IMG/VR virus record: IMGVR_UViG_3300009551_000042
Strand: one strand, 5' to 3'
Length of the DNA stretch: 64,000 nucleotides
Source of the DNA: a virus
Taxonomy: Duplodnaviria; Heunggongvirae; Uroviricota; Caudoviricetes
Shown here: positions 8,341-45,042 of the stretch, one piece after another
Position numbering within the stretch: position 1 is the stretch's first letter
How the letters are laid out: each line of letters starts with the position of its first letter
Translations under genes and position numbers: made by a program
The notes under the pieces: model-generated
The model's database searches: none
Seen by the model: the letters and a program-made list of their open reading frames with translations, nothing else
Told to the model about the DNA's origin: nothing

Positions 8341-8616
8341 GCTACCATCGGTGTCCCGTGCACGGGCTGGCCCCGTGCGACTGCCGATGGGCTCTAGTGC
8401 CGAAACGCTGACGTCGACAATACTCGCTGATGTGAGTTTGATTCGCCCGCGAACTTTCGCTGACATCTTTCTTGCTTCTGTTCTTATCCCTGGGCTGTTC
8501 GCTTGGACGGCCCTTAAGGGACTCTTGCTCCACGTGACCGACCGGCGTCGGTGATGGGCTGTAACCCCGTTCCGCTTTGCGCGGCAGTTAGGTTCGACTC
8601 CTAAGTGGTGCACTAT

Positions 8617-8691
8617 GCGGCTGTATCTCAATTGGCAGAGGCCCGGCTTTTAACCGGTGCGACGTCGGTTCGAACCCGGCCAGCCGCACCA
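8617..8691 (+). tRNA. tRNA-Lys(TTT)
   Basis: 7-bp acceptor gcggctg/cagccgc, T-arm gtcgg-ttcgaac-ccggc, loop cttttaa, CCA encoded. Confidence 0.65.
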
Positions 8692-8695
8692 CAAT

Positions 8696-8769
8696 GCGTG
8701 TGTAGCACAGAGGTAGTGCAGTCGGCTCTTAACCGATCGGATCGCGTTCGACTCGCGACGCACGCACCA
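8696..8769 (+). tRNA. tRNA-Lys(CTT)
   Basis: Acceptor gcgtgtg/cgcacgc, D gcac/gtgc, AC gtcgg-ctcttaa-ccgat, T tcgcg-ttcgact-cgcga, CCA encoded. Confidence 0.7.
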
Positions 8770-8816
8770 TCCCCCACGGTTCGCCCGTGGGCTGCCTGGG
8801 GCAACCAGGCTTCTAT

Positions 8817-8888
8817 TCCGGGATCGTCTAACTGGTAGGACTAGGGATTCTGAATCCCTCAACGCTGGATCGTACCCAGCTCTCGGAT
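8817..8888 (+). tRNA. tRNA-Gln(CTG)
   Basis: U1:A72 acceptor tccggga/tctcgga, AC aggga-ttctgaa-tccct, T gctgg-atcgtac-ccagc (A54 T-loop). Confidence 0.6.
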
Positions 8889-8904
8889 CTCTTTGACAAT
8901 CTAT

Positions 8905-8989
8905 TCCAGGATGGGTGAGCGGCAAGCCACTCGGCTGTTAACCGAGCGCAGAAATGCAATCGTTGGTTCGAATCCAACTCCTGGAGCCA
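8905..8989 (+). tRNA. type II (long variable arm) tRNA whose anticodon loop reads GTT
   Basis: Acceptor tccagga/tcctgga, G73, CCA encoded; AC ctcgg-ctgttaa-ccgag; variable hairpin gca-gaaa-tgc; T gttgg-ttcgaat-ccaac. Confidence 0.5.
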
Positions 8990-8991
8990 TT

Positions 8992-9063
8992 GCCGGTCTA
9001 GCACTCGGGGAGTGCACCTCATTTGTAACGAGGAGTAGATGGGTTCGAATCCCTTGATCGGCT
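8992..9063 (+). tRNA. tRNA-Thr(TGT)
   Basis: Acceptor gccggtc/gatcggc, D gcac/gtgc, AC loop ttgtaa with A31-C39 mismatch, T atggg-ttcgaat-ccctt. Confidence 0.55.
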
Positions 9064-9150
9064 CTAGGGTGCCTGTTGGTGTGGCGTACCCGTTAACTGA
9101 AGTAACCCAACGCTCGCTGGCAGACCGAGCAAACCCGTCCGCTCATTCAT

Positions 9151-9221
9151 GGCGCATGTACTGCTGGTGCGGTAGTCGGCTTTTCACACCGACCCGCCGG
9201 GATCGTAACCCGGATGCGTCA
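9151..9221 (+). tRNA. tRNA, probable Glu(TTC) with expanded anticodon loop (C31-A39 mismatch)
   Basis: Acceptor ggcgcat/atgcgtc, T ccggg-atcgtaa-cccgg; AC stem gtcgg/ccgac with 9-nt loop cttttcaca. Confidence 0.4.
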
Positions 9222-9310
9222 CTACCCGGAGCGGCAACCGGGCATCAAAGTGTCGCGCGCAGGCTTCGAGACATTTGGCCCGGGCTGGTTCTCTCGATTG
9301 TAGCGCGTTA

Positions 9311-9383
9311 GGGTCGTTAGCAAATCTGGTGATTGCCGTGCGTTGAAGCCGCACAGAGGCCGGTTCGAATCCGGCGCGACCCA
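9311..9383 (+). tRNA. tRNA-Phe(GAA)
   Basis: Acceptor gggtcgt/gcgaccc, D gcaa/ttgc, AC gtgcg-ttgaagc-cgcac, T gccgg-ttcgaat-ccggc. Confidence 0.75.
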
Positions 9384-9473
9384 CTTGTGCGGAGTTGGCT
9401 CCGTTGGCGACGGGGGAAGGCCTGTGACCTGGGGTGAGAGGACCCTTTTGACTGCCAGGAAAGACTGGCTCTG

Positions 9474-9546
9474 CGAGCTGAAGTCCGTTGGACGGACACG
9501 TGTCTTGGGCACACGATGTATGAGAGTTCGATTCTCTCCAGCTCGA
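9474..9546 (+). tRNA. tRNA-Pro(TGG)
   Basis: C1:G72 acceptor cgagctg/cagctcg, D gtcc/ggac, AC cgtgt-cttgggc-acacg, T gagag-ttcgatt-ctctc. Confidence 0.7.
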
Positions 9547-9551
9547 CGACT

Positions 9552-9626
9552 GGGGTGTGGCCCGGGTTTGGGCAAGGGCGGCTGTGACCCGCTTTTAACG
9601 GAGTTCGACTCTCCGGCATCCCTCCA
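9552..9626 (+). tRNA. tRNA, probable His(GTG)
   Basis: Acceptor ggggtgt/gcatccc, T cggag-ttcgact-ctccg, CCA encoded; AC ggcgg-ctgtgac-ccgct; D-arm irregular. Confidence 0.45.
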
Positions 9627-10186
9627 TGGACAGGGAGAAAAGCAAACGCCTGAGCTATGTGCTGAGGCACCACCCAGAAAGCGCCGGGCTTACGCTTGAC
9701 GTTGCTGGTTGGGCTGACGTGCATCGCCTTATGGCGAACATGGGGTTTAACCCGACCGAACTGTCTCACGAAGTGCTTACGAATTCAAAGCAGCGCTTCG
9801 AGTTCAGTGATGATGGGATGCGCATTCGCGCCTGTCAAGGTCACAGTGTGGATGTAGACCTGGGGCTACGCGAGCAGCAGCCGCCCATAGTGCTTTTCCA
9901 CGGTACGTGCGAAGACTCACTTCCTGGAATTCGGGAAGAGGGCATCAAAGCGATGTCCCGTAGACAGGTGCACCTGTCGACCGACCGCGAGACGGCTCAG
10001 CAGGTCGGGGCTCGTCACGGTGCGCCAGTCGTCTTGAGCGTTCAGTCATTGCTGATGTGCGTTGAGGGCTACCGCTTCTATCTCTCGACCAACGGAGTCT
10101 GGCTTACGGATTCCGTACCATCAAAGTTCATCAACTTCGGGCCGCGCCGACAGCCCTCGGGTATTCCCGAAAACCCGGCGCCCTAA
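9626..10186 (+). CDS. kptA: RNA 2'-phosphotransferase (Tpt1/KptA family)
   Basis: KRLSYVLRHHPE, IRACQGHSVDVDL, VLFHGTCEDSL, RRQVHLS motifs; start ATG overlaps the CCA end of the preceding tRNA. Confidence 0.8.
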   Translation: MDREKSKRLSYVLRHHPESAGLTLDVAGWADVHRLMANMGFNPTELSHEVLTNSKQRFEFSDDGMRIRACQGHSVDVDLGLREQQPPIVLFHGTCEDSLPGIREEGIKAMSRRQVHLSTDRETAQQVGARHGAPVVLSVQSLLMCVEGYRFYLSTNGVWLTDSVPSKFINFGPRRQPSGIPENPAP

Positions 10187-10188
10187 AT

Positions 10189-10259
10189 GCTACCGGACGC
10201 GATTGGATCGCGAACCCGCTGTCTACGGGTTGAAGAGGGTTCGATTCCCTTCGGTAGCG
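10189..10259 (+). tRNA. tRNA-Asp(GTC)
   Basis: Acceptor gctaccg/cggtagc, D cgcg/cgcg, AC acccg-ctgtcta-cgggt, T gaggg-ttcgatt-ccctt. Confidence 0.7.
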
Positions 10260-10330
10260 CCCGCTGGTGACACAGCAGACCGCTACCCGTCGGCACACGG
10301 GTTGATAGGCGTAACGGGTACGCCGCTCAT

Positions 10331-10398
10331 GAGTCCGAGTGCAGGGCACAACGAAGCCTCCAAAACTTCGGAACTAGGTTCGATTCCTAGCGGGCTCG
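10331..10398 (+). tRNA. tRNA, probable Trp(CCA); compact D-arm, C31-A39 mismatch
   Basis: Acceptor gagtccg/cgggctc, T ctagg-ttcgatt-cctag; AC stem cgaag/cttcg with inner loop ctccaaa; 68 nt. Confidence 0.4.
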
Positions 10399-10557
10399 CT
10401 ACATGTCGAGATCAAGGCATGACAGCAAGCGTCGTGGTGGCCGTGAATATTGGTCGCGTCGCTACACGCCAACAGCGCTCTCCTGGGGAACGTATGGCAA
10501 ACGTTTGACGCATCGCTTCGAGCGGCAGCAAGCCAAACGAATCATTCTCGAACAATC

Positions 10558-10630
10558 GGGGCACTGACGAAGGCGTCGGAACATCCTTGCAAGATGTCTC
10601 CAGAGGGAGCGTTACCCTCGTGCTCCACCA
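10558..10630 (+). tRNA. tRNA-Ala(TGC)
   Basis: Acceptor ggggcac/gtgctcc with G3-U70, AC acatc-cttgcaa-gatgt, T gaggg-agcgtta-ccctc (non-canonical T-loop), CCA encoded. Confidence 0.6.
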
Positions 10631-10730
10631 GTCGCCAGTTAGCTGATAAATCACTGGCAAGCAGGGACAAGGGTTACCGGTTTACTAGACCCTCCTGCGA
10701 ACTCGATTGCAACGAGCAAACCGGAACAAT

Positions 10731-10799
10731 GCTGGTTCGTCTTGGAGACCGCTCTGCATGGTAAGCAGGCCGGAACGGGATCGAAACCCGTAACCAGCT
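10731..10799 (+). tRNA. tRNA-Thr(GGT)
   Basis: Acceptor gctggtt/aaccagc, AC tctgc-atggtaa-gcagg, T acggg-atcgaaa-cccgt; tiny D-loop. Confidence 0.45.
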
Positions 10800-10978
10800 C
10801 GGGCATTCCCAGGATCGGGGAGTTTGAAAGTCGGCACGCCTGCCGGCGCTTAGCAACTTAAACGCGGGTTGTGGTGACATGTGGCGCGCCGGTCGCTCCG
10901 GCAATGACAATCACATGCAGGCCGGTTTGCTGTCCGGTCGCAATCCACCAAAGCGGACTAGTCACTAAAACAGCATCT

Positions 10979-11053
10979 GCGCGTGAGGTGTACTTGGCTG
11001 CATCTCTGTCTTCCAAACAGAAGGACTCGGATCATTCCCGAGCACGCGCACCA
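10979..11053 (+). tRNA. tRNA-Gly(TCC)
   Basis: Acceptor gcgcgtg/cacgcgc, AC tctgt-cttccaa-acaga, T ctcgg-atcattc-ccgag, CCA encoded. Confidence 0.65.
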
Positions 11054-11054
11054 C

Positions 11055-11128
11055 GCAGTCAATGAGTTACGGTAGCTCGTCGCATTGCCAATGCGGAGGC
11101 CCGGGATCATCACCCGGTGACTGCACCA
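11055..11128 (+). tRNA. tRNA-Gly(GCC)
   Basis: Acceptor gcagtca/tgactgc, D gagt/gctc, AC tcgca-ttgccaa-tgcgg, T ccggg-atcatca-cccgg, CCA encoded. Confidence 0.7.
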
Positions 11129-11129
11129 C

Positions 11130-11198
11130 GACCCGCAGCCCAGGGGGCTAGCAGCGCTGCAAACGCAGCTCGGGGCGGATCGATACCGCCGCGGGTCT
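11130..11198 (+). tRNA. tRNA-like, anticodon unresolved
   Basis: Acceptor gacccgc/gcgggtc and T ggcgg-atcgata-ccgcc are clean; the central region folds as a tetraloop hairpin (gctgc-aaac-gcagc) instead of a 7-nt anticodon loop. Confidence 0.35.
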
Positions 11199-11203
11199 CA
11201 AGC

Positions 11204-11271
11204 GCCCCCGCCGATGGACGGCACCGCGTCTTCTAAACGCACGTGAGCAGGCTCGATCCCTGCCGGGGGCA
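11204..11271 (+). tRNA. tRNA-Arg(TCT)
   Basis: Acceptor gcccccg/cgggggc, AC gcgt-cttctaa-acgc, T gcagg-ctcgatc-cctgc; truncated D-arm, 68 nt. Confidence 0.45.
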
Positions 11272-11275
11272 CTAT

Positions 11276-11347
11276 GCCGCGCTCGACTTCAGGTGAGGTC
11301 GTAGGTTTCTCAAACCTACCAGACGGGATCGTTACCCGTGCGCGGTG
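11276..11347 (+). tRNA. tRNA-Glu(CTC)
   Basis: Acceptor gccgcgc/gcgcggt, D gact/ggtc, AC taggt-ttctcaa-accta, T acggg-atcgtta-cccgt. Confidence 0.7.
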
Positions 11348-11385
11348 CCGATGAAACCAGGCACCACACCGATCGGTTAAATCAT

Positions 11386-11454
11386 ACCCCGGCCCGAGGA
11401 TGGGCCGTGACGCTACGAACGTTACTGGACAGGGTTCGAGTCCCTGACGGGGTA
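11386..11454 (+). tRNA. tRNA-Arg(ACG)
   Basis: AC tgacg-ctacgaa-cgtta, D ggcc/ggcc, T caggg-ttcgagt-ccctg; acceptor has a G7-A66 mismatch or a 1-nt offset. Confidence 0.5.
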
Positions 11455-11512
11455 CCTATGTCGGGCGAGTGAAACGGTTCACGTCAGCCTCATAAGCTGA
11501 AAACACCCAGGT

Positions 11513-12478
11513 TCAATTCCAGGGGCCCGACTCCAAAATCTTCTCCGCGTACGCTTGCCCAATGAGGCAATCCGCGGCGCCAGTCCTATGGATCATGTCA
11601 GCGCCAAACGCTGACCCGTAGGAGTCGATCGCGTGACCAGGTGACGCGATCGACGTCTGCACGGCGCGCACAGCATCCATGCTGGCCTTCTTGTATCGCG
11701 GCGACCAAGTGATCACGATGTACGGATCCAGCGGCTGTTTCGCGACGCCTTCGAACGCCGCCCGCAACGCAGCGAGCCGTCCGGGCCAGGCTGCGGTAAC
11801 CTCGGGGTCGCCGAGCTTCGCTTCGTTCTCGCCTTGATCCCAGACCCAGCGGAAATCAAACGCAGTACCGGACGGGAACTCTTTGGCGAGCAGCGAAACC
11901 GCCAGCTCGAATTTCTTGACGTAAGGAACGCCGGGACCAGTCGGATCCCACTGGCTGATGTACGTGCCGCCGTGCGTGATCTTGATCACGGCAACGCGAC
12001 GGCCGGCAGCCTGCAAGGCCTTTGCTGCGCATAGCTCATGTGACAGCGTGCCGTCGAACGCAGGAGCAACTGACAGGAACGCTTCCTGCTGGAGCGCCTT
12101 TGCCTTGCCGAAGCTGAACTGGAACTCCGGAATTGTTGCGTCCGGAACGCCTCCCGGTACCGAGTCCGTCGACATTCCCTCCGCGTTGCTCTGACCAGCA
12201 ACGAACAGCACGATGACTGGAAGCTCTGGGCCTGCACCAGCTTCGCCTCCAGTGGCTAACGCACCCGCTTCGCCTCCGGCGCCTGCTGCTCCGGCCTCGA
12301 CGCTCGCAGCCTGTCCCGCTTCGCCACCGATGGTCGCTTGCTCAACAACGGCAGGAGCGCCGGCCCCTGATTCGTGGGCCCCCGCCTCGTCGCACAGTGT
12401 GGCCTGATTCGACTCAGTAGGCACCGCTGACGAGCAAGCCACCACCATTCCCACTACAAGCATAGCCATGTGTTTCAT
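11513..12478 (-). CDS. secreted lipoprotein, SASA-type SGNH carbohydrate esterase (sialate O-acetylesterase-like)
   Basis: Signal/lipobox MKHMAMLVVGMVVAC, Ala/Gly-rich linker, then VAGQSNAEG (GQSNMxG-type motif). Only minus-strand gene inside the plus-strand tRNA array. Confidence 0.6.
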   Translation of the reverse strand: MKHMAMLVVGMVVACSSAVPTESNQATLCDEAGAHESGAGAPAVVEQATIGGEAGQAASVEAGAAGAGGEAGALATGGEAGAGPELPVIVLFVAGQSNAEGMSTDSVPGGVPDATIPEFQFSFGKAKALQQEAFLSVAPAFDGTLSHELCAAKALQAAGRRVAVIKITHGGTYISQWDPTGPGVPYVKKFELAVSLLAKEFPSGTAFDFRWVWDQGENEAKLGDPEVTAAWPGRLAALRAAFEGVAKQPLDPYIVITWSPRYKKASMDAVRAVQTSIASPGHAIDSYGSAFGADMIHRTGAADCLIGQAYAEKILESGPWN

Positions 12479-12517
12479 CTATGCGCATGGATATCGTCCA
12501 TATTTATTACCGTCAAG

Positions 12518-12589
12518 CGTGCGCGGCTGAGGTAGCAGCGAAGGCTCATATCCTTTAGCTTTTGGGTTCGAATCCCAGGCGCACGACCA
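12518..12589 (+). tRNA. tRNA-Met/Ile(CAT)
   Basis: C1:G72 acceptor cgtgcgc/gcgcacg, AC gaagg-ctcatat-ccttt, T ttggg-ttcgaat-cccag, CCA encoded; no initiator G-C triplet. Confidence 0.55.
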
Positions 12590-12660
12590 CCAGGAGGCGC
12601 GAATGATGCCTATTCGCTGGCGAGGACTTTAGCGGACCCCGAACTATCGGAGGTTTCGCA

Positions 12661-12735
12661 TGTGCAAGTATTGCAAGCTTGCGATCCAGCTCGGCGGCAA
12701 GATGTGCCGCCCATGCTGGCGTCGGAAGCGTTGAA
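12661..12735 (+). CDS. 24-aa zinc-ribbon micro-ORF (MCKYCKLAIQLGGKMCRPCWRRKR)
   Basis: GGAGG RBS 8 nt upstream, CxxC-N9-CxxC; a second AGGAGG-ATG micro-ORF (MMPIRWRGL) lies at 12603-12632. Confidence 0.3.
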
Positions 12736-12812
12736 CTGACACTCGCAGAGGCGAACGCCTGCTGCGCAAAAATGGAGAGCCGCGCGCCAAGCGTCTGAAC
12801 AGCGGCAACTAT

Positions 12813-12884
12813 TCCAGGTTCGTCTAACGGGTAGGACGCAGGATTTTGGTTCCTGCTATCGGGGTTCGAATCCTCGCCCTGGAA
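12813..12884 (+). tRNA. tRNA-Gln(TTG)
   Basis: U1:A72 acceptor tccaggt/ccctgga (7:66 mismatch), D gtct/ggac, AC cagga-ttttggt-tcctg, T cgggg-ttcgaat-cctcg. Confidence 0.55.
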
Positions 12885-12888
12885 CAAC

Positions 12889-12963
12889 GGCACGCGAGTC
12901 CAGCTGGTGAAGGCGGCGCACTTACAATGCGTTCTCGCATGGGTTCGATTCCCTGGCGTGTCA
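12889..12963 (+). tRNA. tRNA-Val(TAC)
   Basis: Acceptor ggcacgc/gcgtgtc, AC gcgca-cttacaa-tgcgt, T-stem with 1-nt bulge around ggg-ttcgatt-ccc. Confidence 0.5.
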
Positions 12964-12969
12964 CCCCGA

Positions 12970-13041
12970 GCGCGTTCGGTTGGGTAGCCTAGCCGGCCTT
13001 ATGAGCGGTGAGAGCTGGTTCGACTCCAGCAGCGCGCACCA
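12970..13041 (+). tRNA. tRNA, anticodon unresolved (expanded 8-10-nt loop ccttatga)
   Basis: Acceptor gcgcgtt/agcgcgc, T gctgg-ttcgact-ccagc, CCA encoded; no clean 5-7-5 anticodon hairpin. Confidence 0.4.
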
Positions 13042-13042
13042 T

Positions 13043-13116
13043 GCACCTGAGTCCACCTGGTTGGTGGAAACGATCTGATACGTCGTACGCGGTGAGTTCG
13101 ATTCTCACGAGGTGCA
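13043..13116 (+). tRNA. tRNA-Ile(GAT)
   Basis: D tcca/tgga, AC acgat-ctgatac-gtcgt, T gtgag-ttcgatt-ctcac; acceptor gcacctg/gaggtgc with 7:66 mismatch. Confidence 0.6.
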
Positions 13117-13152
13117 CCCGTCTGCGGGAGGACGTTAAACAGTCCCGTCAAT

Positions 13153-13226
13153 CCTGACGTAGCCCAATTGGCCGAGGCAACCGTCTTAGAAACGGACAGA
13201 TGTGGGTTCGAGTCCCTCCGTCAGGA
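13153..13226 (+). tRNA. type I tRNA whose anticodon loop reads TAG (Leu CUA codon) but lacks a long variable arm
   Basis: C1:G72 acceptor cctgacg/cgtcagg, AC accgt-cttagaa-acgga, 5-nt variable loop, T gtggg-ttcgagt-ccctc. Confidence 0.45.
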
Positions 13227-13241
13227 CTAGTAGCGACTAAC

Positions 13242-13326
13242 GCAAGCGTGGTGGAACAGGCAGACGCAGCGGCTTCAAACCCCGCCGGGCTATCAGCCCA
13301 TGCGAGTTCGACTCTCGCCGCTTGCA
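13242..13326 (+). tRNA. type II tRNA (85 nt); anticodon loop cttcaaa (TCA) or alternative register CAA
   Basis: Acceptor gcaagcg/cgcttgc, T gcgag-ttcgact-ctcgc; anticodon stem imperfect (gg/cc then mismatch). Confidence 0.45.
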
Positions 13327-13332
13327 CAGACC

Positions 13333-13857
13333 ATGAGACGCCGAAGAGCAAACCAACCCGGTCGCAAAACGCTGGTTCTTAGCGCAAGCTACGTGCCCGT
13401 CCGCATTATCTCATGGCGCGACGCAATCAAGATGCGTTGCGAGGACACGGCCGATGTGGTGGCGGAGTACCGCGAGACGGTTAGCTCACCGTCGGTAACG
13501 TGGCGCATTCCGGCCGTGATCCGCGAGCGGCAATTTCACAAGGGCCGCGCTGGTGTCAGGTTTAGTCCGCTGAATGTCTTCAGGCGCGACGGCTACCGCT
13601 GTCAGTATTGCGGCGACAGATTCCCGCCCGACAAGCTCGAATGCGAACACGTTGTCCCGAAGAGCAAGGGCGGGAAGCGCAACTGGGAAAACATCGTTGC
13701 GGCATGCCGCACATGCAACGCCAGAAAGCGCGATAGGAGCTGCGAGGAGATCGGCATGTTCCCGTTGGCCAAACCAGTGCGGCCCAAGTCGCTTCCTGTC
13801 GACAGGCTCGAGGTGCCGCACGAGCGAGCGCCTGAAGAATGGCTCGCGTATTTGTGA
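13333..13857 (+). CDS. HNH endonuclease
   Basis: CQYCG...HVVPKSKGG...N...ACRTCNARK HNH motif; ATG chosen right after the tRNA 3' end (longer 13300 start would overlap the tRNA). Confidence 0.7.
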   Translation: MRRRRANQPGRKTLVLSASYVPVRIISWRDAIKMRCEDTADVVAEYRETVSSPSVTWRIPAVIRERQFHKGRAGVRFSPLNVFRRDGYRCQYCGDRFPPDKLECEHVVPKSKGGKRNWENIVAACRTCNARKRDRSCEEIGMFPLAKPVRPKSLPVDRLEVPHERAPEEWLAYL

Positions 13858-13862
13858 TTTCT

Positions 13863-13945
13863 GGAAAGTAAACCCTGAGTGGTCGGGGAGCCGGTTTGAA
13901 CCCGGTGGCACCGCAAGGTGAGGCGTTCGACTCGTCTGCTTTCCT
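13863..13945 (+). tRNA. tRNA-Ser(TGA), type II
   Basis: Acceptor ggaaagt/gctttcc, AC gccgg-tttgaac-ccggt, variable hairpin cacc-gcaa-ggtg, T aggcg-ttcgact-cgtct. Confidence 0.6.
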
Positions 13946-13951
13946 CAAACT

Positions 13952-14037
13952 GGAGAGTAAACCGGCAAGGCTGGCCGGGCTTGCTTGCTAAGCAATGTCG
14001 CACCGTAAGGTGTGGGCTTCGATTGCTCTGCTCTCCG
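13952..14037 (+). tRNA. tRNA-Ser(GCT), type II
   Basis: Acceptor ggagagt/gctctcc with G73, AC ttgc-ttgctaa-gcaa, variable hairpin cacc-gtaa-ggtg, T tgggc-ttcgatt-gctct. Confidence 0.6.
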
Positions 14038-14045
14038 CAAAATTC

Positions 14046-14113
14046 GCCCGCGCGCTTCGGAAGCATCGTGCATTCGTATCGCACCTAACCCGGTTCGACT
14101 CCGGGCGTGGGCT
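14046..14113 (+). tRNA. tRNA, possibly Thr(CGT) (A31-C39 mismatch, compact D-arm)
   Basis: Acceptor gcccgcg/cgtgggc, T cccgg-ttcgact-ccggg, AC gtgc-(a)ttcgtat(c)-gcac. Confidence 0.35.
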
Positions 14114-14115
14114 CT

Positions 14116-17469: not shown

Positions 17470-18468
17470 TTATGCCCGGAGCTGGCTAGAGCTGATATCC
17501 CAGCGCCCCTCAAGGGGCTCCAGGTTGTAGATGACACCGGATTCCGGAACCGCCGCGATAGCCTCTTCGGCGCTGACCCAGCGCCCGTTGACCTCGCGTC
17601 CAACAATCTTCAAGGTCGTGTCATTGTCGGCGAGCTTGCGTAGGAGGTCCATCGGGTCAGGACCCCACTTCGGGTCGAGCATCCGAAGGAAGGCGTCTGC
17701 ACCGATGACGATTGCACGACGCGGAAACGCATTGGACTTATCCAGATAGAGCGGCATACCCGACGTGAACAGACGGTCTCTGCGGTGCAGCATCTTGGCT
17801 CGCTGCACCATCTCAGCCAGCGCTAGCGGTGGCTTGTGCGGCGTGGTCGCTTCGATCCAGTGAATCGCGTTGACCGATTCGGCGATAGCCAGGTGTCCCT
17901 GATGCGGCGGATTGAAGGCACCTGGGTATAGCGCGCGATGCGCTGGTGGTGTGGCGTGGCGTGTACCATCGGCTGCCCAGTAGGAGCGACCTAGAAAGAG
18001 ACTAAGCGCGTGTCCCGTGACCTCACCGGACAGAGGGCGCCCGCGATCGAGTAGCATCTTGATCACTGAGTCCGCATGCCGTCCCTGCCACTCGCGAGCC
18101 TTTGCGCCGTGCTCATTCTCGTAGCCGTAGTGGTACGCCCTGACGCCCTCCGCCGTCATCAGGGCAACATGGATGCGGTTCTCGCCCTTGCGCGGCTTAG
18201 CGCTCGCCACAGCGCCGCTGAGCCCTACCCCAACCGCGTCAGTCCCGGGCTGCCATGCGCGATAGTAGGCCATCATCGCCATCTCGATCGATGTATCCTC
18301 ACAGCACGCTCGCTCCGGCGCGAAGCCTAAAAAGTCCTCTAGCTGATCGTGACCGTACGGGAAGCAGGCCCCGGCGAAGTAGGCGGAGCAGCCGGGCACA
18401 CGCCAAATGTCGGCCTGTGCTCCGGCTCCTGCACCCGTTGCCGCAATGTAGATGCGGCGCTTACTCAC
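17470..18468 (-). CDS. nicotinamide-nucleotide adenylyltransferase (NMNAT, C-terminal HxGH nucleotidyltransferase domain) with N-terminal domain of unknown function
   Basis: GAFNPPHQGHL (H/T)xGH motif in C-terminal half; 4-nt overlap with the NAMPT gene. Confidence 0.65.
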   Translation of the reverse strand: MSKRRIYIAATGAGAGAQADIWRVPGCSAYFAGACFPYGHDQLEDFLGFAPERACCEDTSIEMAMMAYYRAWQPGTDAVGVGLSGAVASAKPRKGENRIHVALMTAEGVRAYHYGYENEHGAKAREWQGRHADSVIKMLLDRGRPLSGEVTGHALSLFLGRSYWAADGTRHATPPAHRALYPGAFNPPHQGHLAIAESVNAIHWIEATTPHKPPLALAEMVQRAKMLHRRDRLFTSGMPLYLDKSNAFPRRAIVIGADAFLRMLDPKWGPDPMDLLRKLADNDTTLKIVGREVNGRWVSAEEAIAAVPESGVIYNLEPLEGRWDISSSQLRA

Positions 18469-19862
18469 GCTGCCAAGCTCCTGTCCGCGTTGGCGCGAAC
18501 CTCGTCGAGGGTGAACGTGCGCTTGAGTTCGCCGTTTTCGAAGACGGTCTGCAACTCATCTCGCAGCTGGGTCGGTTGCTGAACTGTCGTATAAGCACCG
18601 GTCTGCGCGTTGCGCACGAGAGACAAGCGGCCCCATTTGCTTCGCTTCCCCGGGTCCGTGACAGGGTCCTTAGCGATCGGACGCGATACGCCGTTGACCG
18701 TTACCTCGCTCGGCTTGAACGCAAACTTCTGCGTGTCGCGGTCGACCTTCTGTAGCAACGCGCCGCCCATACCGAACGCGATGTTTGACGCACTGTAGCC
18801 ATTGGCCTTCATGACGAGGAGGATCTCAGTGATGGAGTCGTGATTGACGCCGTCGCCCTGGATCACGCGGAGCCACTTCGGGAGCAGCTTGTAGCCGCGC
18901 ATGTTCATCGGCGCGCCGACCTTGCGCTCCAGGATCTGAAGCGTCTTCAGCACGACGTCCGGCGGGTGACCCGAGTCCGGGCGAACCACGAGAGTGGCGC
19001 CGCTGCGCTCGATGTCCTCGCGAAGCTCACCGCCCCACACGTTCTCCAGCACGTTCCACAGGTCGTAACTGTCCGAGACGCACGCGAACAGAGAGCCAGG
19101 CTTGGCGAACTGTTTGACGACGTTGCGGTATGCATCGAGCTCGCCGTCTCGTCCCCAGCTGATGATCGTGCTGTGCTCGGTCGCCGGGATCGAGAACGCC
19201 GGCATGCCGTTAGCGGTGCCGTAGAAGCGGCGCGCTGCCAGAATGCCTTCCACTGTGTCTGAGCCCTGGAAGTTCACCAGGTGCGCCATGCCGCCAAGCT
19301 CGGCGGATTCCGCGCTCGACACTCCGCGGGCCCCGAAGTCGTGAAGCTTGAACGGCAGCTCGGCCAAGGGCGCGTCGCTGGTCTCGTTCAGGTATTCCAG
19401 GATCGTCCGCTTGATGTAGTGCGATTGCGTGGCAACCGTGGTCGGATACCAAATCGCGCGCAGCAGAACGGTCTCGAGGTACGAGGGGAGCCAGAAGAAC
19501 TCTGGATCCGTCGACTCGACGGACATCAGGATGTTGTGCGTCGGAACGACGGTGCCCTCGGCTACCGCCTTGATGCGCAGCGGCAGCGTCCCGCCGTGCT
19601 TATCAACGAGACGCAACCAAGCCGCACGGTCGAACGGCTCACCGTGCGCCGCGAAGAACTCTGCAGCCTCCCGAACGTCGTCGACAGTTAGAACGGCGCC
19701 GCTGAGGTACGCCTTTAGGAAGGCCTGGAGACCGAAGAAAACAGTCGATCCGTACTTGCCGCCGCGACTCTCCAGGTAGCTGTAAAGCCCCGTGGTCCCC
19801 GGCGGGAACAGACCGATGTGTGATGGCTTGTATGAATCAGTAGCTAGACACAGATTGCGCAT
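18465..19862 (-). CDS. nadV: nicotinamide phosphoribosyltransferase (NAMPT/NadV)
   Basis: 465 aa; characteristic type II phosphoribosyltransferase blocks (GYRGVSS-like, DSGHPPDVV). Confidence 0.8.
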   Translation of the reverse strand: MRNLCLATDSYKPSHIGLFPPGTTGLYSYLESRGGKYGSTVFFGLQAFLKAYLSGAVLTVDDVREAAEFFAAHGEPFDRAAWLRLVDKHGGTLPLRIKAVAEGTVVPTHNILMSVESTDPEFFWLPSYLETVLLRAIWYPTTVATQSHYIKRTILEYLNETSDAPLAELPFKLHDFGARGVSSAESAELGGMAHLVNFQGSDTVEGILAARRFYGTANGMPAFSIPATEHSTIISWGRDGELDAYRNVVKQFAKPGSLFACVSDSYDLWNVLENVWGGELREDIERSGATLVVRPDSGHPPDVVLKTLQILERKVGAPMNMRGYKLLPKWLRVIQGDGVNHDSITEILLVMKANGYSASNIAFGMGGALLQKVDRDTQKFAFKPSEVTVNGVSRPIAKDPVTDPGKRSKWGRLSLVRNAQTGAYTTVQQPTQLRDELQTVFENGELKRTFTLDEVRANADRSLAA

Positions 19863-20370
19863 GCCCCGGTGTTAAAGCCGGGGCAGCGTTCATCACTAGA
19901 ACAGGCGCCGCGTCTTGCTCAAGCGCGCTACGCAAGATCTCGACATGATCGAAAGCCAGTCTCCCGGGTTCGAACAGGTCGCCTGTCATCTCCACCCATT
20001 CAGCTGCGGCAGCGTCGTCACCGGCTTTGATGATGATCGGGCCCTCGTAGTCATCGAGCGAAGCCACGAAAGCCACGCTCACGACCCAGCCACGCGGATC
20101 CCTTCCGGGCGTCGTGAACGCCCGGACCTGTACGAGAGAAGCGGCGCGGTGGTAGACGTCATTGACGACAAGGCGTAGCCCGGTCTCTTCCTCCAGCTCC
20201 CGCTGGGCCGCCTCCTCCGCGCTCTCACCCTCGTTCACGTAGCCGCCAGGCAGCGCCCACATGCCCTTGAACGGCTCGTCGCGGCGCTTGATGAGCAGCA
20301 CGCGCGAGCCGTCCAAGACCACGCAATCGACAGTCAGCGCCGGGCGCGGATAGTCGTAGGTATGCTTCAC
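19837..20370 (-). CDS. NUDIX hydrolase
   Basis: Nudix box GGYVNEGESAEEAAQRELEEETGL. Confidence 0.75.
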   Translation of the reverse strand: MKHTYDYPRPALTVDCVVLDGSRVLLIKRRDEPFKGMWALPGGYVNEGESAEEAAQRELEEETGLRLVVNDVYHRAASLVQVRAFTTPGRDPRGWVVSVAFVASLDDYEGPIIIKAGDDAAAAEWVEMTGDLFEPGRLAFDHVEILRSALEQDAAPVLVMNAAPALTPGHAQSVSSY

Positions 20371-25676: not shown

Positions 25677-25690
25677 TCAAAACCTCCGGG

Positions 25691-26079
25691 TGGACCGCCC
25701 GGGAATCGAACCCGGGTCCACGAGACGGAACAGAGGATCTCGCTCACGCGCGTAGTCCGTTTAGAGCCCGGACGGGCTTGACGCCGGGGGGACGGCGCCT
25801 CCACCACCAGTGCCTACTAGAACGTCGATGGAAGGTGCACTGGAACCATCGTCGACAGCTGCCCGTGTATTTGCGCCGTGAGAGCTACTCGGGCTCTCGC
25901 ACCCACGACGGCTTACGCTGCCAGGGGCAGGTAAGCATCACCCTCGTCGGCTTGCGCCTCGAAGGGGACCGCGTTGTCGTTCGCAGTTACGTTTGCTCGC
26001 CGGGATTAACGACTCTCGCGAGCATGAGTCGGCGCGATCAATCCTACATCCACATCCCATGTCGAAACCTGTGCGGCCC
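25691..26079 (-). ncRNA. ssrA: tmRNA (ssrA-like), tag reading frame ANDNAVPFEAQADEGDAYLPLAA-stop
   Basis: Minus strand: 5' GGGCCGCACAGGTTTCGACATGGG (cf. bacterial GGGG...GGAUUCGACGGG); 3' T-arm ccggg-ttcgatt-cccgg plus acceptor gcggtcc pairing with the 5' end including G3-U70; tag ORF at plus 25904-25975 ending LAA-TAA. Confidence 0.7.
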
Positions 26080-28877: not shown

Positions 28878-30509
28878 ATGAAATACCTACAGCACTTCAA
28901 TCCGGCTCGCACGCCGCAGACCGAGCAAGCGTCCGCTAAGCAGGTCCCGAACTCGGCCGGCGGGTTTTCCTTTGCCGTCGACAACTGGAAGCGCCTGGAA
29001 AGGTTCGTGATCTTGGGGTCTGAGGGCGGCAGTTACTACGCGAGTGAGAAGACGCTGACCCGCGAAAGCGCCGCAGCTGTCCTGGCGTGCTGTGCGGAGG
29101 ATGGTCCGCGCGCCGTCAGTTCTGTCGTGGAAATCTCGGACAGCGGCCGGGCACCAAAGAACGATGCCGCTATATTTGCCCTAGCGCTTGCCGCCACGCA
29201 CGATAACCCGAGCGCTCGTGAGGCGGCGCTCTCCGCGCTACCGCGCGTGTGTCGAACCGGGACGCACCTGTTCCAGTTTGTTTCACAGGTCGATCAGATG
29301 CGCGGCTGGGGCAGAGCCCTACGGCGCGGCGTATCGAACTGGTACACGAGCAAGACGCAAGCTGACCTTGCGTTTCAGGTTTGCAAGTACCAGAACCGCG
29401 AGGGTTGGTCGCACGCTGACGTTCTAGCCCGCTGCCACGCGCGAAGCCTCGACCTGAATCCGGTGTTACGTTGGATCGTCGCTGGCATCAACGGGGGCGG
29501 TGAGCGCGCACATTACAGCCGGGAGATGCAGCTGTTTCGTGAGTATCCGGACCCGGGTCCCCTCCCCGAGTTCCTGATCGACTTCGAGGAGCTGAAGCAT
29601 GCTGACGAGAAGCGAACCATTCAGCTGATTCAAAAACACGGCTACACGCACGAAATGATCGCGACCGAGCATAAGAACTCGGCGGCGGTTTGGGAGTCAT
29701 TACTCCCGCGCATGGGCATGACCGCGCTCATTCGTAACCTGGGCAAACTGACCGAGGTCGGTTTACTCAAGCCGCTGAGTGCAGCCGCGCGAACAGTCTC
29801 CGAGCGATTGCAGGATCGAGAGGCCTTGCGCAAGGGGCGAGTCCATCCGATTCAAATGCTCTCGGCCCTCAGTGTCTACGCACAAGGCCACGGCGAGCGC
29901 GGGTCTCTGACCTGGGTTCCCGTTAGCACTGTGACCGATGCACTGAATGAGGGTTTCTATCAGTCGTTCGGAGTCATCCAGCCGAGCGGCAAGCGCCACA
30001 TGCTGGCGCTCGATGTTTCTGGAAGCATGACCTGCGGGCGCATCGCTGGAGTGCCGGGGCTCACGCCGCGCACTGCGTCTGCGTGCATGGCGATGGTGAC
30101 CGCCCGCGTTGAAAAGGAATGGGAGGTATACGGCTTCTCAGATCGCTTCATCAAGCTGGACATCAGCCCGACTCGTCGCCTGGACGAAATTTGCCACTAC
30201 ATGAACCGGTTGCCGTTCAGCTCGACGAATTGCTCGCTACCGATTCAGTTCGCGAGCCAGCAAAAGATGGAGGTCGATCTGTTCTCCGTCTACACCGACT
30301 CAGAGACCTACGCGGGCAATGAGCACCCGCACCAGTCACTGCGCCGATACCGGCAAAACATGGGTATTCCGGCTCGCATGGCCGTGATCGGGATGGTTTC
30401 CAACGGATTCACGATCGCTGATCCTGATGACGCCGGCATGCTGGACGTCGTCGGCTTTGACACAGCGACGCCCGCGCTACTTTCAGCGTTCGCGCGCGGC
30501 GACCTCTAG
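28878..30509 (+). CDS. rsr: Ro60-related protein (Rsr; TROVE domain plus C-terminal vWA)
   Basis: 543 aa; TROVE-like N-terminal region; C-terminal MIDAS LALDVSGSM. Confidence 0.8.
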   Translation: MKYLQHFNPARTPQTEQASAKQVPNSAGGFSFAVDNWKRLERFVILGSEGGSYYASEKTLTRESAAAVLACCAEDGPRAVSSVVEISDSGRAPKNDAAIFALALAATHDNPSAREAALSALPRVCRTGTHLFQFVSQVDQMRGWGRALRRGVSNWYTSKTQADLAFQVCKYQNREGWSHADVLARCHARSLDLNPVLRWIVAGINGGGERAHYSREMQLFREYPDPGPLPEFLIDFEELKHADEKRTIQLIQKHGYTHEMIATEHKNSAAVWESLLPRMGMTALIRNLGKLTEVGLLKPLSAAARTVSERLQDREALRKGRVHPIQMLSALSVYAQGHGERGSLTWVPVSTVTDALNEGFYQSFGVIQPSGKRHMLALDVSGSMTCGRIAGVPGLTPRTASACMAMVTARVEKEWEVYGFSDRFIKLDISPTRRLDEICHYMNRLPFSSTNCSLPIQFASQQKMEVDLFSVYTDSETYAGNEHPHQSLRRYRQNMGIPARMAVIGMVSNGFTIADPDDAGMLDVVGFDTATPALLSAFARGDL

Positions 30510-30627
30510 TAGCCAAACGAGGCCACAACTAAAACAAGACTACGGCACGAGCCGGAAGCTGGTGGGTTATCAATTGTAAACTGATGCCAACCCCACCGGC
30601 GCCACCTTTGTTCGTGCCAACTTTTAC

Positions 30628-30763
30628 GCAGGTGATCGTCTAGCGGTAGGACGCGAAAATCTCCCTTGACGCCCTCTTTGTCCAATCCTCGGTTGGGCCG
30701 ATAGTTGAGGGTTACCATCTTCAGGAGATCGAAACGCTGGTTCGAATCCAGCTCACCTGCCCA
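30628..30763 (+). ncRNA. Y RNA-like ncRNA (tRNA-mimic module plus long imperfect helix) downstream of rsr
   Basis: 8-bp acceptor-like stem gcaggtga/tcacctgc with CCA after it, D-arm gtc-tagcggtag-gac, T-arm gctgg-ttcgaat-ccagc; the anticodon arm is replaced by an ~80-nt bulged helix (atctcc/ggagat, gccctc/gagggt). Confidence 0.55.
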
Positions 30764-31103
30764 GAGCCCAGGGCCGCACGACGGAGGGTTAACCCGTTAA
30801 GTTTTCCCCCTCCGTCACCACCTTTGCCCGGGCTCGCCTACTTATGACTGAGAGAGTCTTCGTTCCGAGCTGGGTTCTCATAGGCCTGCTCTGTGCCATC
30901 GCGTGCGCCGCTGGCGTCGCTGCTGGTTGCCATTGATCGGGCGACTGGTCAGCTCCGGCCTAGCGGTCGGGTTCCTTGTCGGATTTTGCCTCGGGAGTTT
31001 CGTCGGCCTTCTATGCACCCGTTAACCGCACCGCTTGTTTTTTCCATCTTGGCGCGGATGCCCGTCTGTTGGGCTGACCGTCACGATCATAGAAAACCGT
31101 GGC

Positions 31104-44761: not shown

Positions 44762-45042
44762 GGGTATTTGTCAGCCTGGTTGCATTCAACCTGGCTGAGG
44801 TCGCGATTCAGAGGGAAGAGGCGCGGGGGATGGTTGAGGCGTGCCTTTGGCGCCTTCTAGCGCTCATTGGCGAAAGGCGACCAAAGCTTGTTGGAGTCTA
44901 CGACGGTGACGCGGGATGCGTTCACGTCGTCTATCGGGTGAGGACGCGCAGTCGTGCGCTGCAATGGCACGCGCTGTCCGCACCATTCGGGGATCTGGAC
45001 CGACGGTTCATTGATGACGCTTGGGGGCAAGAGGAAACATGA
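44758..45042 (+). CDS. hypothetical protein
   Basis: ORF 94 aa. Confidence 0.45.
   Translation: MRVFVSLVAFNLAEVAIQREEARGMVEACLWRLLALIGERRPKLVGVYDGDAGCVHVVYRVRTRSRALQWHALSAPFGDLDRRFIDDAWGQEET

Follow-up and report, generated by a model that had tools for sequence, protein, structure and literature searches.

What does a phage genome hold when some thirty tRNA genes stand side by side in it and the standard tRNA model recognises about half of them? The question arises from a stretch of 64,000 nucleotides (hereafter the window) of the virus record IMGVR_UViG_3300009551_000042 (Caudoviricetes), in which tRNA genes follow one another along the plus strand from position 8527 to 14114. An initial annotation had folded about 30 tRNAs by hand in 8555–14115, assigned them to at least 17 amino acids and pointed to oddities that recur across the array. 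We find 31 tRNA genes in these 5,588 bp (5.5 per kb), with 30 different anticodons for all 20 amino acids; CAU is the sole anticodon present twice. Judging from the sequence, we regard it as likely that they form a functional phage tRNA array unit, which would provide a near-complete decoding set of the phage's own and in which the unusual elbow variants are not products of decay.

Gene content of the array

How firmly can 31 genes be asserted? With default settings ARAGORN reports 21 tRNAs, all on the plus strand between 8527 and 13946 (3.9 per kb over that span of 5,420 bp), and in its -ps mode the count for the array rises to 26, with no call in the other 58 kb of the window. This search, which the initial annotation had proposed as a check, is supportive in both modes and uninformative at a threshold of 80%, where it returns 31 calls on the plus strand of the array, six on its minus strand and 85 outside (about 0.7 per kb of strand); because of these 85 matches, a call seen solely at the 80% threshold was counted as no evidence. 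A covariance model, R1, was trained on 68 class I tRNAs from other IMG/VR phage contigs, none of them from the window, and was run unfiltered over both strands of the full 64 kb, with E-values that are rough owing to a short calibration. It gives 29 matches in the array at E ≤ 0.022, separated by a wide gap from the next ones at E ≥ 0.5; outside the array it matches two places, the tRNA-like domain of a transfer-messenger RNA (tmRNA) and a tRNA-like module, resembling a Y RNA, beside a Ro60 gene. Two genes lie below its cut, tRNA-Glu(UUC) and tRNA-Ser(GCU); R1 is a class I model, and the latter tRNA belongs to class II. A hand-written cloverleaf rule (acceptor and T stems fully paired at 7/7 and 5/5, a T loop of the form N[TG]CRNNN, and an anticodon stem of at least 4/5 closing a 7-nt loop that has U33 and a purine at position 37) matches 21 times in the array, 0 times in the other ~122 kb counted over both strands, and 0.005 times per shuffle of the array. 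Among the genes that pass it are Trp (10331), Ala (10558), Thr-GGU (10731), Cys (11130), Arg-UCU (11204) and Thr-CGU (14046), and Arg-ACG passes with 6/7 in the acceptor stem. A tRNA array unit is understood as at least 20 tRNAs at two or more per kb (Tran 2016; Morgado & Vicente 2018; PMC5966550); the present locus has 31 genes (26 by ARAGORN -ps, 29 by R1) at more than twice that density. The genes, with the searches that report them, are as follows.

8527–8613 (+): tRNA-Tyr(GUA), class II with long variable arm; ARAGORN default, Rfam clan 38.5 bits, R1 on the 3' part with 14.5 bits
8617–8691 (+): tRNA-Lys(UUU), CCA encoded; ARAGORN default, Rfam 50 bits, R1 65.0 bits
8696–8769 (+): tRNA-Lys(CUU), CCA encoded; ARAGORN default, Rfam 60.7 bits, R1 56.8 bits
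8817–8889 (+): tRNA-Gln(CUG), U1:A72, T loop ATCGTAC (A54/U58); ARAGORN default, Rfam 48.2 bits, R1 47.2 bits
8905–8989 (+): tRNA-Asn(GUU), 15-nt variable arm, U1:A72, G73, CCA encoded; ARAGORN default, Rfam 52.5 bits
8992–9064 (+): tRNA-Thr(UGU), A31.C39 mismatch; ARAGORN default, Rfam, R1 50.4 bits
9151–9222 (+): tRNA-Glu(UUC), T loop ATCGTAA (A54/U58), C31.A39 mismatch; ARAGORN default, cloverleaf rule, R1 10.2 bits, no Rfam match
9311–9384 (+): tRNA-Phe(GAA); ARAGORN default, Rfam 50.8 bits, R1 50.8 bits
9474–9547 (+): tRNA-Pro(UGG), C1:G72, A73; ARAGORN default, Rfam 46.2 bits, R1 41.5 bits
9552–9626 (+): tRNA-His(GUG), CCA encoded, U73, no encoded G-1; ARAGORN default, R1 20.7 bits, no Rfam match
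10188–10262 (+): tRNA-Asp(GUC), anticodon loop CTGTCTA (U37); ARAGORN default, R1 36.3 bits
10331–10398 (+): tRNA-Trp(CCA), 68 nt, D loop 3–5 nt, C31.A39 mismatch, G73; cloverleaf 7/7, ARAGORN -mt, R1 24.5 bits (E 1e-5)
10558–10630 (+): tRNA-Ala(UGC), G3:U70, T loop AGCGTTA (A54, G55, U58), 5-nt D loop, CCA encoded; ARAGORN -ps, cloverleaf rule, R1 17.0 bits (E 0.003), no Rfam match
10731–10799 (+): tRNA-Thr(GGU), 69 nt, mini D arm, T loop ATCGAAA (A54/A58); custom scan, ARAGORN -mt, R1 25.5 bits (E 5e-6), not reported by the standard ARAGORN modes or Rfam
10979–11053 (+): tRNA-Gly(UCC), T loop ATCATTC (A54/U58), CCA encoded; ARAGORN default, Rfam 42.9 bits, R1 38.9 bits
11055–11128 (+): tRNA-Gly(GCC), T loop ATCATCA (A54/U58), CCA encoded; ARAGORN default, Rfam 44 bits, R1 40.2 bits
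11130–11199 (+): tRNA-Cys(GCA), 69 nt, mini D loop, T loop ATCGATA (A54/A58), U73; ARAGORN -ps, cloverleaf, R1 19.5 bits (E 5e-4)
11204–11272 (+): tRNA-Arg(UCU), 68 nt, mini D loop, T loop CTCGATC (C54/A58); cloverleaf 7/7, R1 31.7 bits (E 4e-8)
11276–11349 (+): tRNA-Glu(CUC), T loop ATCGTTA (A54/U58); ARAGORN default, R1 28.7 bits, no Rfam match
11386–11454 (+): tRNA-Arg(ACG), 69 nt; minimum-energy fold a cloverleaf, ARAGORN -mt, R1 33.4 bits (E 1e-8)
11460–11535 (+): tRNA with anticodon CAU (elongator Met or Ile2), CCA encoded; Rfam 32.4 bits, ARAGORN -ps, R1 39.8 bits
12518–12589 (+): second CAU tRNA, C1:G72, CCA encoded, without bacterial initiator features; ARAGORN default, Rfam 32.8 bits, R1 31.7 bits
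12813–12885 (+): tRNA-Gln(UUG), U1:A72, canonical T loop; ARAGORN default, Rfam 47.9 bits, R1 53.8 bits
12889–12965 (+): tRNA-Val(UAC); ARAGORN default, Rfam 34.4 bits, R1 38.8 bits
12970–13041 (+): probable tRNA-Ile(UAU), anticodon stem 3/5, CCA encoded; ARAGORN -ps, Rfam 23.2 bits, R1 32.7 bits
13042–13119 (+): tRNA-Ile(GAU); ARAGORN default, R1 35.1 bits
13153–13227 (+): tRNA-Leu(UAG), class I body with 5-nt variable loop, 3-bp D stem, 11-nt D loop, A73; ARAGORN default, Rfam 54.3 bits, R1 64.1 bits
13242–13327 (+): tRNA-Leu(CAA), class II, C31.C39 mismatch; ARAGORN default, Rfam 39.4 bits
13863–13946 (+): tRNA-Ser(UGA), class II; ARAGORN default, Rfam clan model 31.5 bits
13952–14038 (+): tRNA-Ser(GCU), class II, G73; relaxed ARAGORN only, R1 8.3 bits
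14046–14114 (+): tRNA-Thr(CGU), 68 nt, mini D loop, A31.C39 mismatch; ARAGORN -ps, cloverleaf, R1 26.8 bits (E 2e-6)

The gathering threshold of the Rfam tRNA model RF00005 (29 bits) is reached by 15 of these genes. Trp (26.6 bits) and the probable Ile-UAU fall short of it, four further genes match solely the related tRNA-Sec model below its cut-off, and ten have no RF00005 match at E ≤ 10, even on stretches of 270–1300 nt; on segments of ~300 nt this is the case for Ala, Thr-GGU, Cys, Arg-UCU, Glu-CUC and Arg-ACG. The initial annotation had named a far lower covariance-model count as the outcome that would tell against it, and Rfam, taken formally, gives this outcome, while the phage-trained R1 recovers 29 genes. 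Because the missed genes are recovered by an unfiltered search of this kind, we ascribe the shortfall to divergence and filtering and not to absence of the genes, above all to loss of the GTTCRANNC anchor; absence is also disfavoured because three genes missed by Rfam, Glu-CUC, Glu-UUC and His, are default ARAGORN calls with intact stems.

A few assignments deserve comment. The gene at 12970–13041 has perfect acceptor and T arms, and the R1 alignment gives it the anticodon loop CTTATGA; ARAGORN reads it as His(AUG), one base off, and alternative folds exist, so that Ile-UAU is probable, not certain. The two tRNA-Glu genes are 77% identical over 53 nt. Ser-GCU is a close copy of the Ser-UGA architecture, with the 5' end GGA.AGTAAACC and a near-identical variable arm (CACCGTAAGGTG versus CACCGCAAGGTG). 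The loop CTGTCTA of tRNA-Asp is also found in two other arrays (L057 and L036), and the class II-like body of tRNA-Asn is unusual. C74 is encoded in all 31 genes and full CCA, which the initial annotation had reported for several, in 10; the other 3' ends are mostly CTA, CTC or CAA. The sequence CTAT directly before the next tRNA recurs (8613, 11272, 14114) and may represent a common 3'-processing context.

Non-canonical structural features

In what respects do these tRNAs depart from the canonical form? T loops with A54, mismatches at 31–39, D loops of 3–5 nt and bodies of 68–69 nt had all been described by the initial annotation, and they are seen again in the ARAGORN structures, the cloverleaf fits and the R1 alignment, the short bodies measuring 68–70 nt. 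In the T loop A54 is combined with U58 in six of the 31 tRNAs (Gln-CUG, Glu-UUC, Glu-CUC, Gly-UCC, Gly-GCC and Ala-UGC) and with A58 in two (Cys and Thr-GGU), and Arg-UCU has C54/A58; nine tRNAs in total lack T54, among them all seven confirmed genes in 10558–11349. The combination of a 3–5-nt D loop and a length of 68–70 nt characterises Trp, Ala, Thr-GGU, Cys, Arg-UCU and Thr-CGU, each of which keeps the GG of the D loop, and a mismatch at 31–39 is found in Thr-UGU (A.C), Glu-UUC (C.A), Trp (C.A), Leu-CAA (C.C) and Thr-CGU (A.C). A subset of the array therefore lacks the canonical elbow of U54–A58 and a 7–11-nt D loop with G18 and G19; for Asp and Pro, D loops of a normal 7 nt can be drawn. 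The U1:A72 and C1:G72 ends that had been counted as further oddities are present, the former limited to Gln and Asn and one case of the latter being Pro, but for these tRNAs they are normal bacterial identity features.

Are such features simply common in phage tRNAs? For comparison we used 569 distinct, otherwise unselected phage tRNAs from viral contigs picked through a tRNA-Gln D-arm motif. The A54/U58 combination is found in 9 of these (1.6%) against 6/31 in the array (Fisher p 4e-5), a D loop of at most 5 nt, as read by ARAGORN, in 9/569 (1.6%) against 6/26 (23%; Fisher p 1.5e-5), and a non-pair at 31–39, for which the comparison set was one of 286 tRNAs, in 16/286 (5.6%) against 5/26 (19%; Fisher p 0.02). 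All three p-values are approximate, since the array contains paralogues, which do not count as independent. The two elbow changes are thus concentrated 12–15 fold in the array. Hence the core of the initial annotation, an array with recurring non-canonical features, is borne out and gains an enrichment over other phage arrays, and its statements on end pairs and spacers are corrected.

The two T-loop positions do not vary independently. In the comparison set T/A is found at 54/58 in 530 tRNAs, A/T in 9, A/A in 13 and T/T in 1, so that U58 accompanies A54 in 9 of 22 tRNAs and U54 in 1 of 533 (Fisher p 4e-13). Such covariation points to a structural pair and argues against decay. Nor is the variant confined to phages. 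A scan of cellular sequences for a canonical D arm with GATCRTNNC found at least 120 A54/U58 tRNAs in bacterial and archaeal genomes of many phyla (L130–L249), which rules out a phage-specific trait; universality among phage arrays is ruled out as well, the variant being absent from Gordonia phage Phendrix and from most arrays, while several IMG/VR arrays hold one to five A54/U58 tRNAs each. The cellular cases are mostly isolated tRNA genes, and among the matches listed some lie in tRNA arrays of cellular bins; listed examples are tRNA-Asn in Chryseolinea, Ohtaekwangia and Chryseosolibacter, tRNA-Lys(UUU) in bins of Patescibacteria (the candidate phyla radiation), tRNA-His in Kiritimatiellae and tRNA-Phe in Bacillota. 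A54/U58 is a rare natural variant, in cells too. A near-identical tRNA-Met(CAU) with the loop CTCATAT was also seen in bins of the unrelated taxa Segatella, Sphaerochaeta and Spirochaetales, a distribution that suggests a mobile element or mis-binned phage.

Acceptor stems are 7/7 in 27 of 31 tRNAs and 6/7 in Tyr, Arg-ACG, Gln-UUG and Ile-GAU, T stems are mostly 5/5, and U33 is present in all 31. Under the established identity rules of the aminoacyl-tRNA synthetases, the identity elements fit the anticodons: G3:U70 in Ala, U73 in Cys, G73 in Trp, G1:C72 with C2:G71 in all three Thr, C1:G72 with A73 in Pro, U1:A72 in Gln and Asn, and A73 with a Leu-type D arm in the class I Leu. Because stems, U33, identity elements and non-redundant anticodons are kept, these look like working variants, and we read the elbow and 31–39 variants as tolerated, possibly selected, forms of functional tRNAs.

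A stronger claim would be that the swapped A54/U58 or A54/A58 pair and the 3–5-nt D loop mark an adaptive class of phage tRNAs and not the outcome of neutral drift. This we doubt, and would grant it only a small chance. Were it so, tRNAs with an A54/U58 or A54/A58 elbow, which cannot receive m5U54 or m1A58 and whose elbow surface differs, might escape nucleases and toxins directed at the T loop or elbow, and modification-dependent quality control, with ribosome function kept. As a side effect, standard tRNA covariance models miss about half of such genes, and phage repertoires would then be systematically under-counted.

Function of the array

What could a phage gain from such a set? With standard wobble, 30 clear anticodons read 83% of the 12,568 codons in 44 open reading frames (ORFs) of the window, and 99% if each U34 tRNA reads its whole four-codon box, for most of which the set has one U34 tRNA. 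Left over are AUA, CGG and UUA, or only CGG and UUA if the gene at 12970 is indeed Ile-UAU. A near-minimal complete set of this kind fits translational self-sufficiency better than selective codon compensation. We propose that the array would be expressed as precursor transcripts, which host RNase P, 3' processing and the addition of CCA would turn into mature tRNAs, giving the phage its own near-complete decoding set. Late translation could then go on even with host tRNAs in short supply, degraded or cut by defences that target tRNAs. The RNA 2'-phosphotransferase Tpt1/KptA encoded in the array and an RNA ligase encoded downstream might repair cleaved tRNAs in an NAD-dependent manner, which fits with the adjacent NAD salvage genes. 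Phage tRNAs have been described as a counter to tRNA-depleting defences (PMC10264068, PMC11555353), and KptA with a ligase as a phage tRNA repair system (PMC9503650).

Several observations weigh against this reading. The Rfam tRNA model reaches its threshold for 15 of the array genes only, and Glu-UUC obtains only 10.2 bits with the independent model R1. The probable Ile-UAU has a poor anticodon stem, and tRNA-His is without the usual G-1:C73, the preceding base being T; this pair is normally needed by the bacterial histidyl-tRNA synthetase. A promoter scan of the array gave no promoter-like signal above chance. The defence-evasion step is taken from the literature, not from the sequence of the window. 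Finally, blast and pattern searches found no close relative of the array: megablast of the array against 50,697 phage records gave no match, the sole blastn matches among 120 viral loci were to an HNH fragment and a single Gln tRNA, a loop-anchored tRNA-Gly(GCC) pattern gave 0 matches in JGI metagenomes, a Gln D-arm pattern led to 61 IMG/VR loci related in the Gln tRNA alone, and a Tpt1-based search of IMG/VR loci returned one relative, 51% identical, with no tRNAs nearby.

The alternative that survives best, which we consider rather unlikely, is the classical explanation of phage tRNAs, reviewed in PMC10264068, namely that the array does no more than supply codons frequent in the phage and poorly decoded by the host. 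The U34 tRNAs for the A-ending codons AAA, GAA, CAA, AGA, CUA, UCA, ACA and GUA, which would be rare in a G+C-rich host, agree with it. The set is, however, complete and not selective: it serves 20 amino acids, includes tRNAs for the commonest codons of the phage (GAG, AAG, CAG, GGC, ACC/ACG) and leaves unread only rare ones.

Could the deviant tRNAs, which lie mainly in 10331–11454, instead be decaying pseudogenes or non-decoding relics, with about 20 functional genes around them? Their physical clustering, their shrunken D arms, the G55 in place of U55 in tRNA-Ala and the silence of Rfam on Ala, Thr-GGU, Cys, Arg-UCU, Glu-CUC and Arg-ACG would be expected under decay. Yet every one of them keeps the acceptor stem at 7/7 (6/7 in Arg-ACG), the T stem at 5/5, a 7-nt anticodon loop with U33 and R37, the GG of the D loop and fitting identity elements. 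They also supply anticodons that would otherwise be missing (Ala, Trp, Cys, both Arg and both Gly), so that five amino acids would be lost without them, and positions 54 and 58 covary instead of drifting, with the same variants kept in cultured phages and in cellular genomes. We therefore find decay very unlikely and retain the reading of a functional, near-complete decoding set.

Spacers and protein genes within the array

The initial annotation had also left seven spacers with strong hairpins as possible sites of degenerate or intron-containing tRNAs or other structured RNAs. This part stands for one gene, tRNA-Thr(GGU) at 10731–10799, and not for a further set. The segment 8555–8612 is no spacer at all and belongs to the 3' part of the class II tRNA-Tyr. 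Compared with shuffles, the spacers fold within chance (z -0.3 to -1.7), with a single exception.

8770–8816 (+): spacer with two G+C-rich hairpins; fold z -2.4, with 5/200 shuffles folding as well

Its second hairpin, 8794–8810, is followed by TTCTATT, gives a weak terminator-like match and may be a terminator or processing site. ARAGORN in mitochondrial mode found no additional armless tRNAs in the spacers, and Rfam at E ≤ 10 no credible known structured RNA. Introns or split tRNAs were rejected, the intron mode of ARAGORN giving one spurious minus-strand call that spans the esterase gene described below. Also rejected was a tRNA at 10866–10950 (+), a hairpin-rich segment for which an acceptor-like stem of 8 bp and an ending in ACCA can be drawn, but which is called only at the ARAGORN 80% threshold and has no plus-strand R1 match.

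The array also contains the following protein genes and ORF.

9626–10186 (+): RNA 2'-phosphotransferase Tpt1/KptA; Pfam PF01885 E 1.8e-42, PHROG 5470 E 1.7e-56
10403–10567 (+): ORF of 54 aa, coding status uncertain, covering the first 10 nt of tRNA-Ala; from the ORF list
11513–12478 (-, antisense): SASA-family carbohydrate esterase with a lipoprotein-like signal (MKHMAMLVVGMVVAC...); Pfam PF03629 E 8e-11
13300–13857 (+): HNH endonuclease; Pfam PF14279 and PF01844, PHROG 16726 E 2e-31

The Tpt1/KptA protein matches PF01885 with 145.9 bits (cut-off 26) over profile positions 5–176 of 177 and is a predicted enzyme. The 54-aa ORF, which lies in the spacer 10400–10557, has no PHROG or Pfam match. 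The 5' region of the esterase gene contains imperfect 27-nt tandem repeats (12234–12333) encoding a Gly/Ala/Glu-rich linker. A further ORF of 24 codons at 12660–12734 (+), MCKYCKLAIQLGGKMCRPCWRRKR, contains two CxxC pairs, and a GGAGG precedes its ATG by about 7 nt; it may encode a zinc-ribbon micro-protein between tRNA genes.

Genomic context

The window, with a G+C content of 60%, comes from a metagenome contig of 112 kb obtained from a soil or rhizosphere sample (ENA ERZ27252311, also JGI 3300025924). It belongs to an uncultivated, myovirus-like soil phage by its gene content, and the array stands directly after baseplate and tail-fibre genes: within 10 kb upstream the contig encodes baseplate wedge subunits (PHROG 6, E 8.5e-29, and PHROG 43) and, by a weak PHROG match, a tail fibre, and directly upstream also a 1312-aa protein, a GH5 cellulase–GDSL esterase fusion and an F5/8-type-C protein. 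Virion structural genes thus share a molecule with the array, as in the genome of a tailed phage (Caudoviricetes). That the array unit is instead of cellular or plasmid origin, or that the locus is what remains of an inactive prophage, for which one might cite the array units of Mycobacterium chromosomes and plasmids (PMC5966550), the serine integrase in the window and the matches of the A54/U58 scan to tRNA arrays in cellular bins, is the least probable account of all, given these baseplate wedge and tail-fibre genes on the same contig, the phage-type replication genes elsewhere in the window (primase-helicase, Sak4-like, clamp) with PHROG-only families making up the rest, and no ribosomal or housekeeping operons seen. 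An integrated prophage state of the phage is conceivable.

Downstream of the array lie an NAMPT/NMNAT-like/NUDIX module, helicases, a tmRNA, Ro60 with two Y-RNA-like elements and, further on, genes for a serine integrase, a sliding clamp, an RNA ligase and a primase-helicase.

25689–26079 (-): tmRNA, outside the array; ARAGORN, Rfam RF00023 88.8 bits, tag ANDNAVPFEAQADEGDAYLPLAA

With 23 residues the tag ANDNAVPFEAQADEGDAYLPLAA is unusually long. In the IMG/VR relative found through Tpt1 (L001, 51% identity) a tmRNA adjoins Tpt1, and there are no tRNAs within 10 kb. The NAD+ salvage module occupies 17470–20370 on the minus strand, with a cytidylyltransferase-like (NMNAT-like) gene at 17470–18468, nicotinamide phosphoribosyltransferase at 18465–19862 and a NUDIX hydrolase at 19837–20370; it fits with Tpt1, which consumes NAD, and with the ways in which phages are known to counteract NAD depletion. 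An RNA ligase carrying an OB-fold domain at its N terminus (45021–46058, +) and two calcineurin-type phosphoesterases (35982–36782, +, and 53945–54946, -) could provide the sealing and end-healing of a tRNA repair pathway alongside Tpt1.

The Ro60/TROVE gene at 28878–30509 is followed on the plus strand by two elements at 30543–30618 and 30691–30837. The first matches the stem-bulge family RF01656, a Y RNA homologue, with 37.5 bits against a threshold of 38 (E 4e-6), and the second is a weak Y_RNA match with the tRNA-like module GCTGG TTCGAAT CCAGC (R1 25.6 bits); together they look like a YrlB/YrlA-type pair. The large serine recombinase at 33704–35359 (+) suggests a temperate lifestyle. As for the host, nearly all phage homologues of Ro60 are from actinobacteriophages and what tRNA matches there are, few in number, lead to phages of Gordonia and Streptomyces, but searches with Tpt1 and the sliding clamp (DnaN) gave no particular direction; an actinobacterial host is plausible but unproven.

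Two of three public contig assemblies (Logan SRR6056499 and JGI Ga0207694_10001225) end at about 10285–10291, with no sequence difference, in the short gap between tRNA-Asp and the block of the most deviant tRNAs. This end point may reflect strain variation or a branch in the assembly graph.

Implications

That phages can carry large tRNA arrays is well established, and these arrays are now coming to be seen as insurance against bacterial immunity that targets tRNAs. The present array is an extreme case of elbow-variant tRNAs and as such a natural test set for the requirements of the T-loop/D-loop interaction. The A54/U58 pair shows covariation and is seen again in cultured phages and some bacteria, yet the reviews consulted give it as absent or U54 as universal. 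There is also a warning in the numbers: with 15 of 31 genes at the Rfam threshold and 21 found by default ARAGORN, tRNA counts for metagenomic phages can be substantial underestimates.

Comparison with known systems

How does the array relate to what has been described? The U54–A58 pair has been treated as universal save for eukaryotic A54/A58 cases (PMC7912444, PMC7566577), and A54/A58 pairs have not been observed in bacteria or archaea according to PMC7566577; the term A54-U58 was not found in the literature searched. Eukaryotic initiator tRNA and metazoan tRNA-Ala(AGC) resemble our variants in carrying A54 in a functioning tRNA (PMC7566577, PMC7912444), but they keep A58, forming a purine–purine pair with m1A58, whereas the commoner form in the window is A54 with U58.

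The array units surveyed in PMC5966550 likewise have HNH genes as common passengers and represent 20 isotypes. They come from Mycobacterium chromosomes, plasmids and phages, and non-canonical tRNA structure was not analysed there. Phage tRNAs whose anticodon-loop changes let them escape anticodon nucleases (van den Berg et al. 2023, PMC10264068; Azam et al. 2024, PMC11555353) also form a large deviating set, and the U37 of tRNA-Asp, the 31–39 mismatches beside the loop and the accompanying RNA repair genes recall them; the strongest deviations of the window, however, lie in the elbow and not in the anticodon loop.

Gordonia phage Phendrix (Godonkavirus) shares about 30 tRNAs for all amino acids, a tRNA-Ile(UAU), U1:A72 and C1:G72 ends, and a tRNA-Asn(GUU) (L125, 5661–5748) with the same long variable arm, U1:A72, G73 and encoded CCA as in the window. 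Its class I-shaped tRNA-Leu(UAG) is ~83% identical to ours, and this tRNA, with the D arm GTAGCCCAAnTGGCnGAGGC, is nearly unchanged in Phendrix, in Streptomyces phages and in four IMG/VR contigs (13153–13227 in the window; L125–L129). The phages that have it range from 32% to 60% G+C (32–52% in the other arrays sharing this D arm); a Leu tRNA of a phage type that lacks the long variable arm thus appears to be widespread. Unlike the window, Phendrix has canonical T54/A58 in 30/30 T loops and one mini D loop only, and outside single tRNAs no DNA similarity between the two is detectable.

The nearest architectural counterpart is Mycobacterium phage Alice (cluster C1, Bixzunavirus, as Bxz1), which was picked through Ro60 similarity only. 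Both are myovirus-type genomes with the array after tail genes, in both the array is broken up by genes for an HNH endonuclease and a cell-envelope enzyme and by small ORFs, and both encode a tmRNA and a Ro-like protein. Alice, too, carries ATCGTAA (A54/U58) in Gly-GCC and Asp-GUC, ATCGAGA (A54/A58) in Lys, and mini D loops in Trp (5 nt) and Arg-CCG (3 nt). There is no nucleotide similarity between them, and with a best Ro60 identity to cluster C1 phages of 43.6% only the architecture is alike, which places the window outside Bixzunavirus/cluster C1. In contrast to Alice, the window has Tpt1 inside its array, no peptidyl-tRNA hydrolase or suppressor tRNA, and a tmRNA on the opposite strand, 11.6 kb away from the array and not within it; tRNAs without T54 number 9/31 in the window and 3/24 in Alice. 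The array is thus a divergent example of a known phage feature and no new kind of system.

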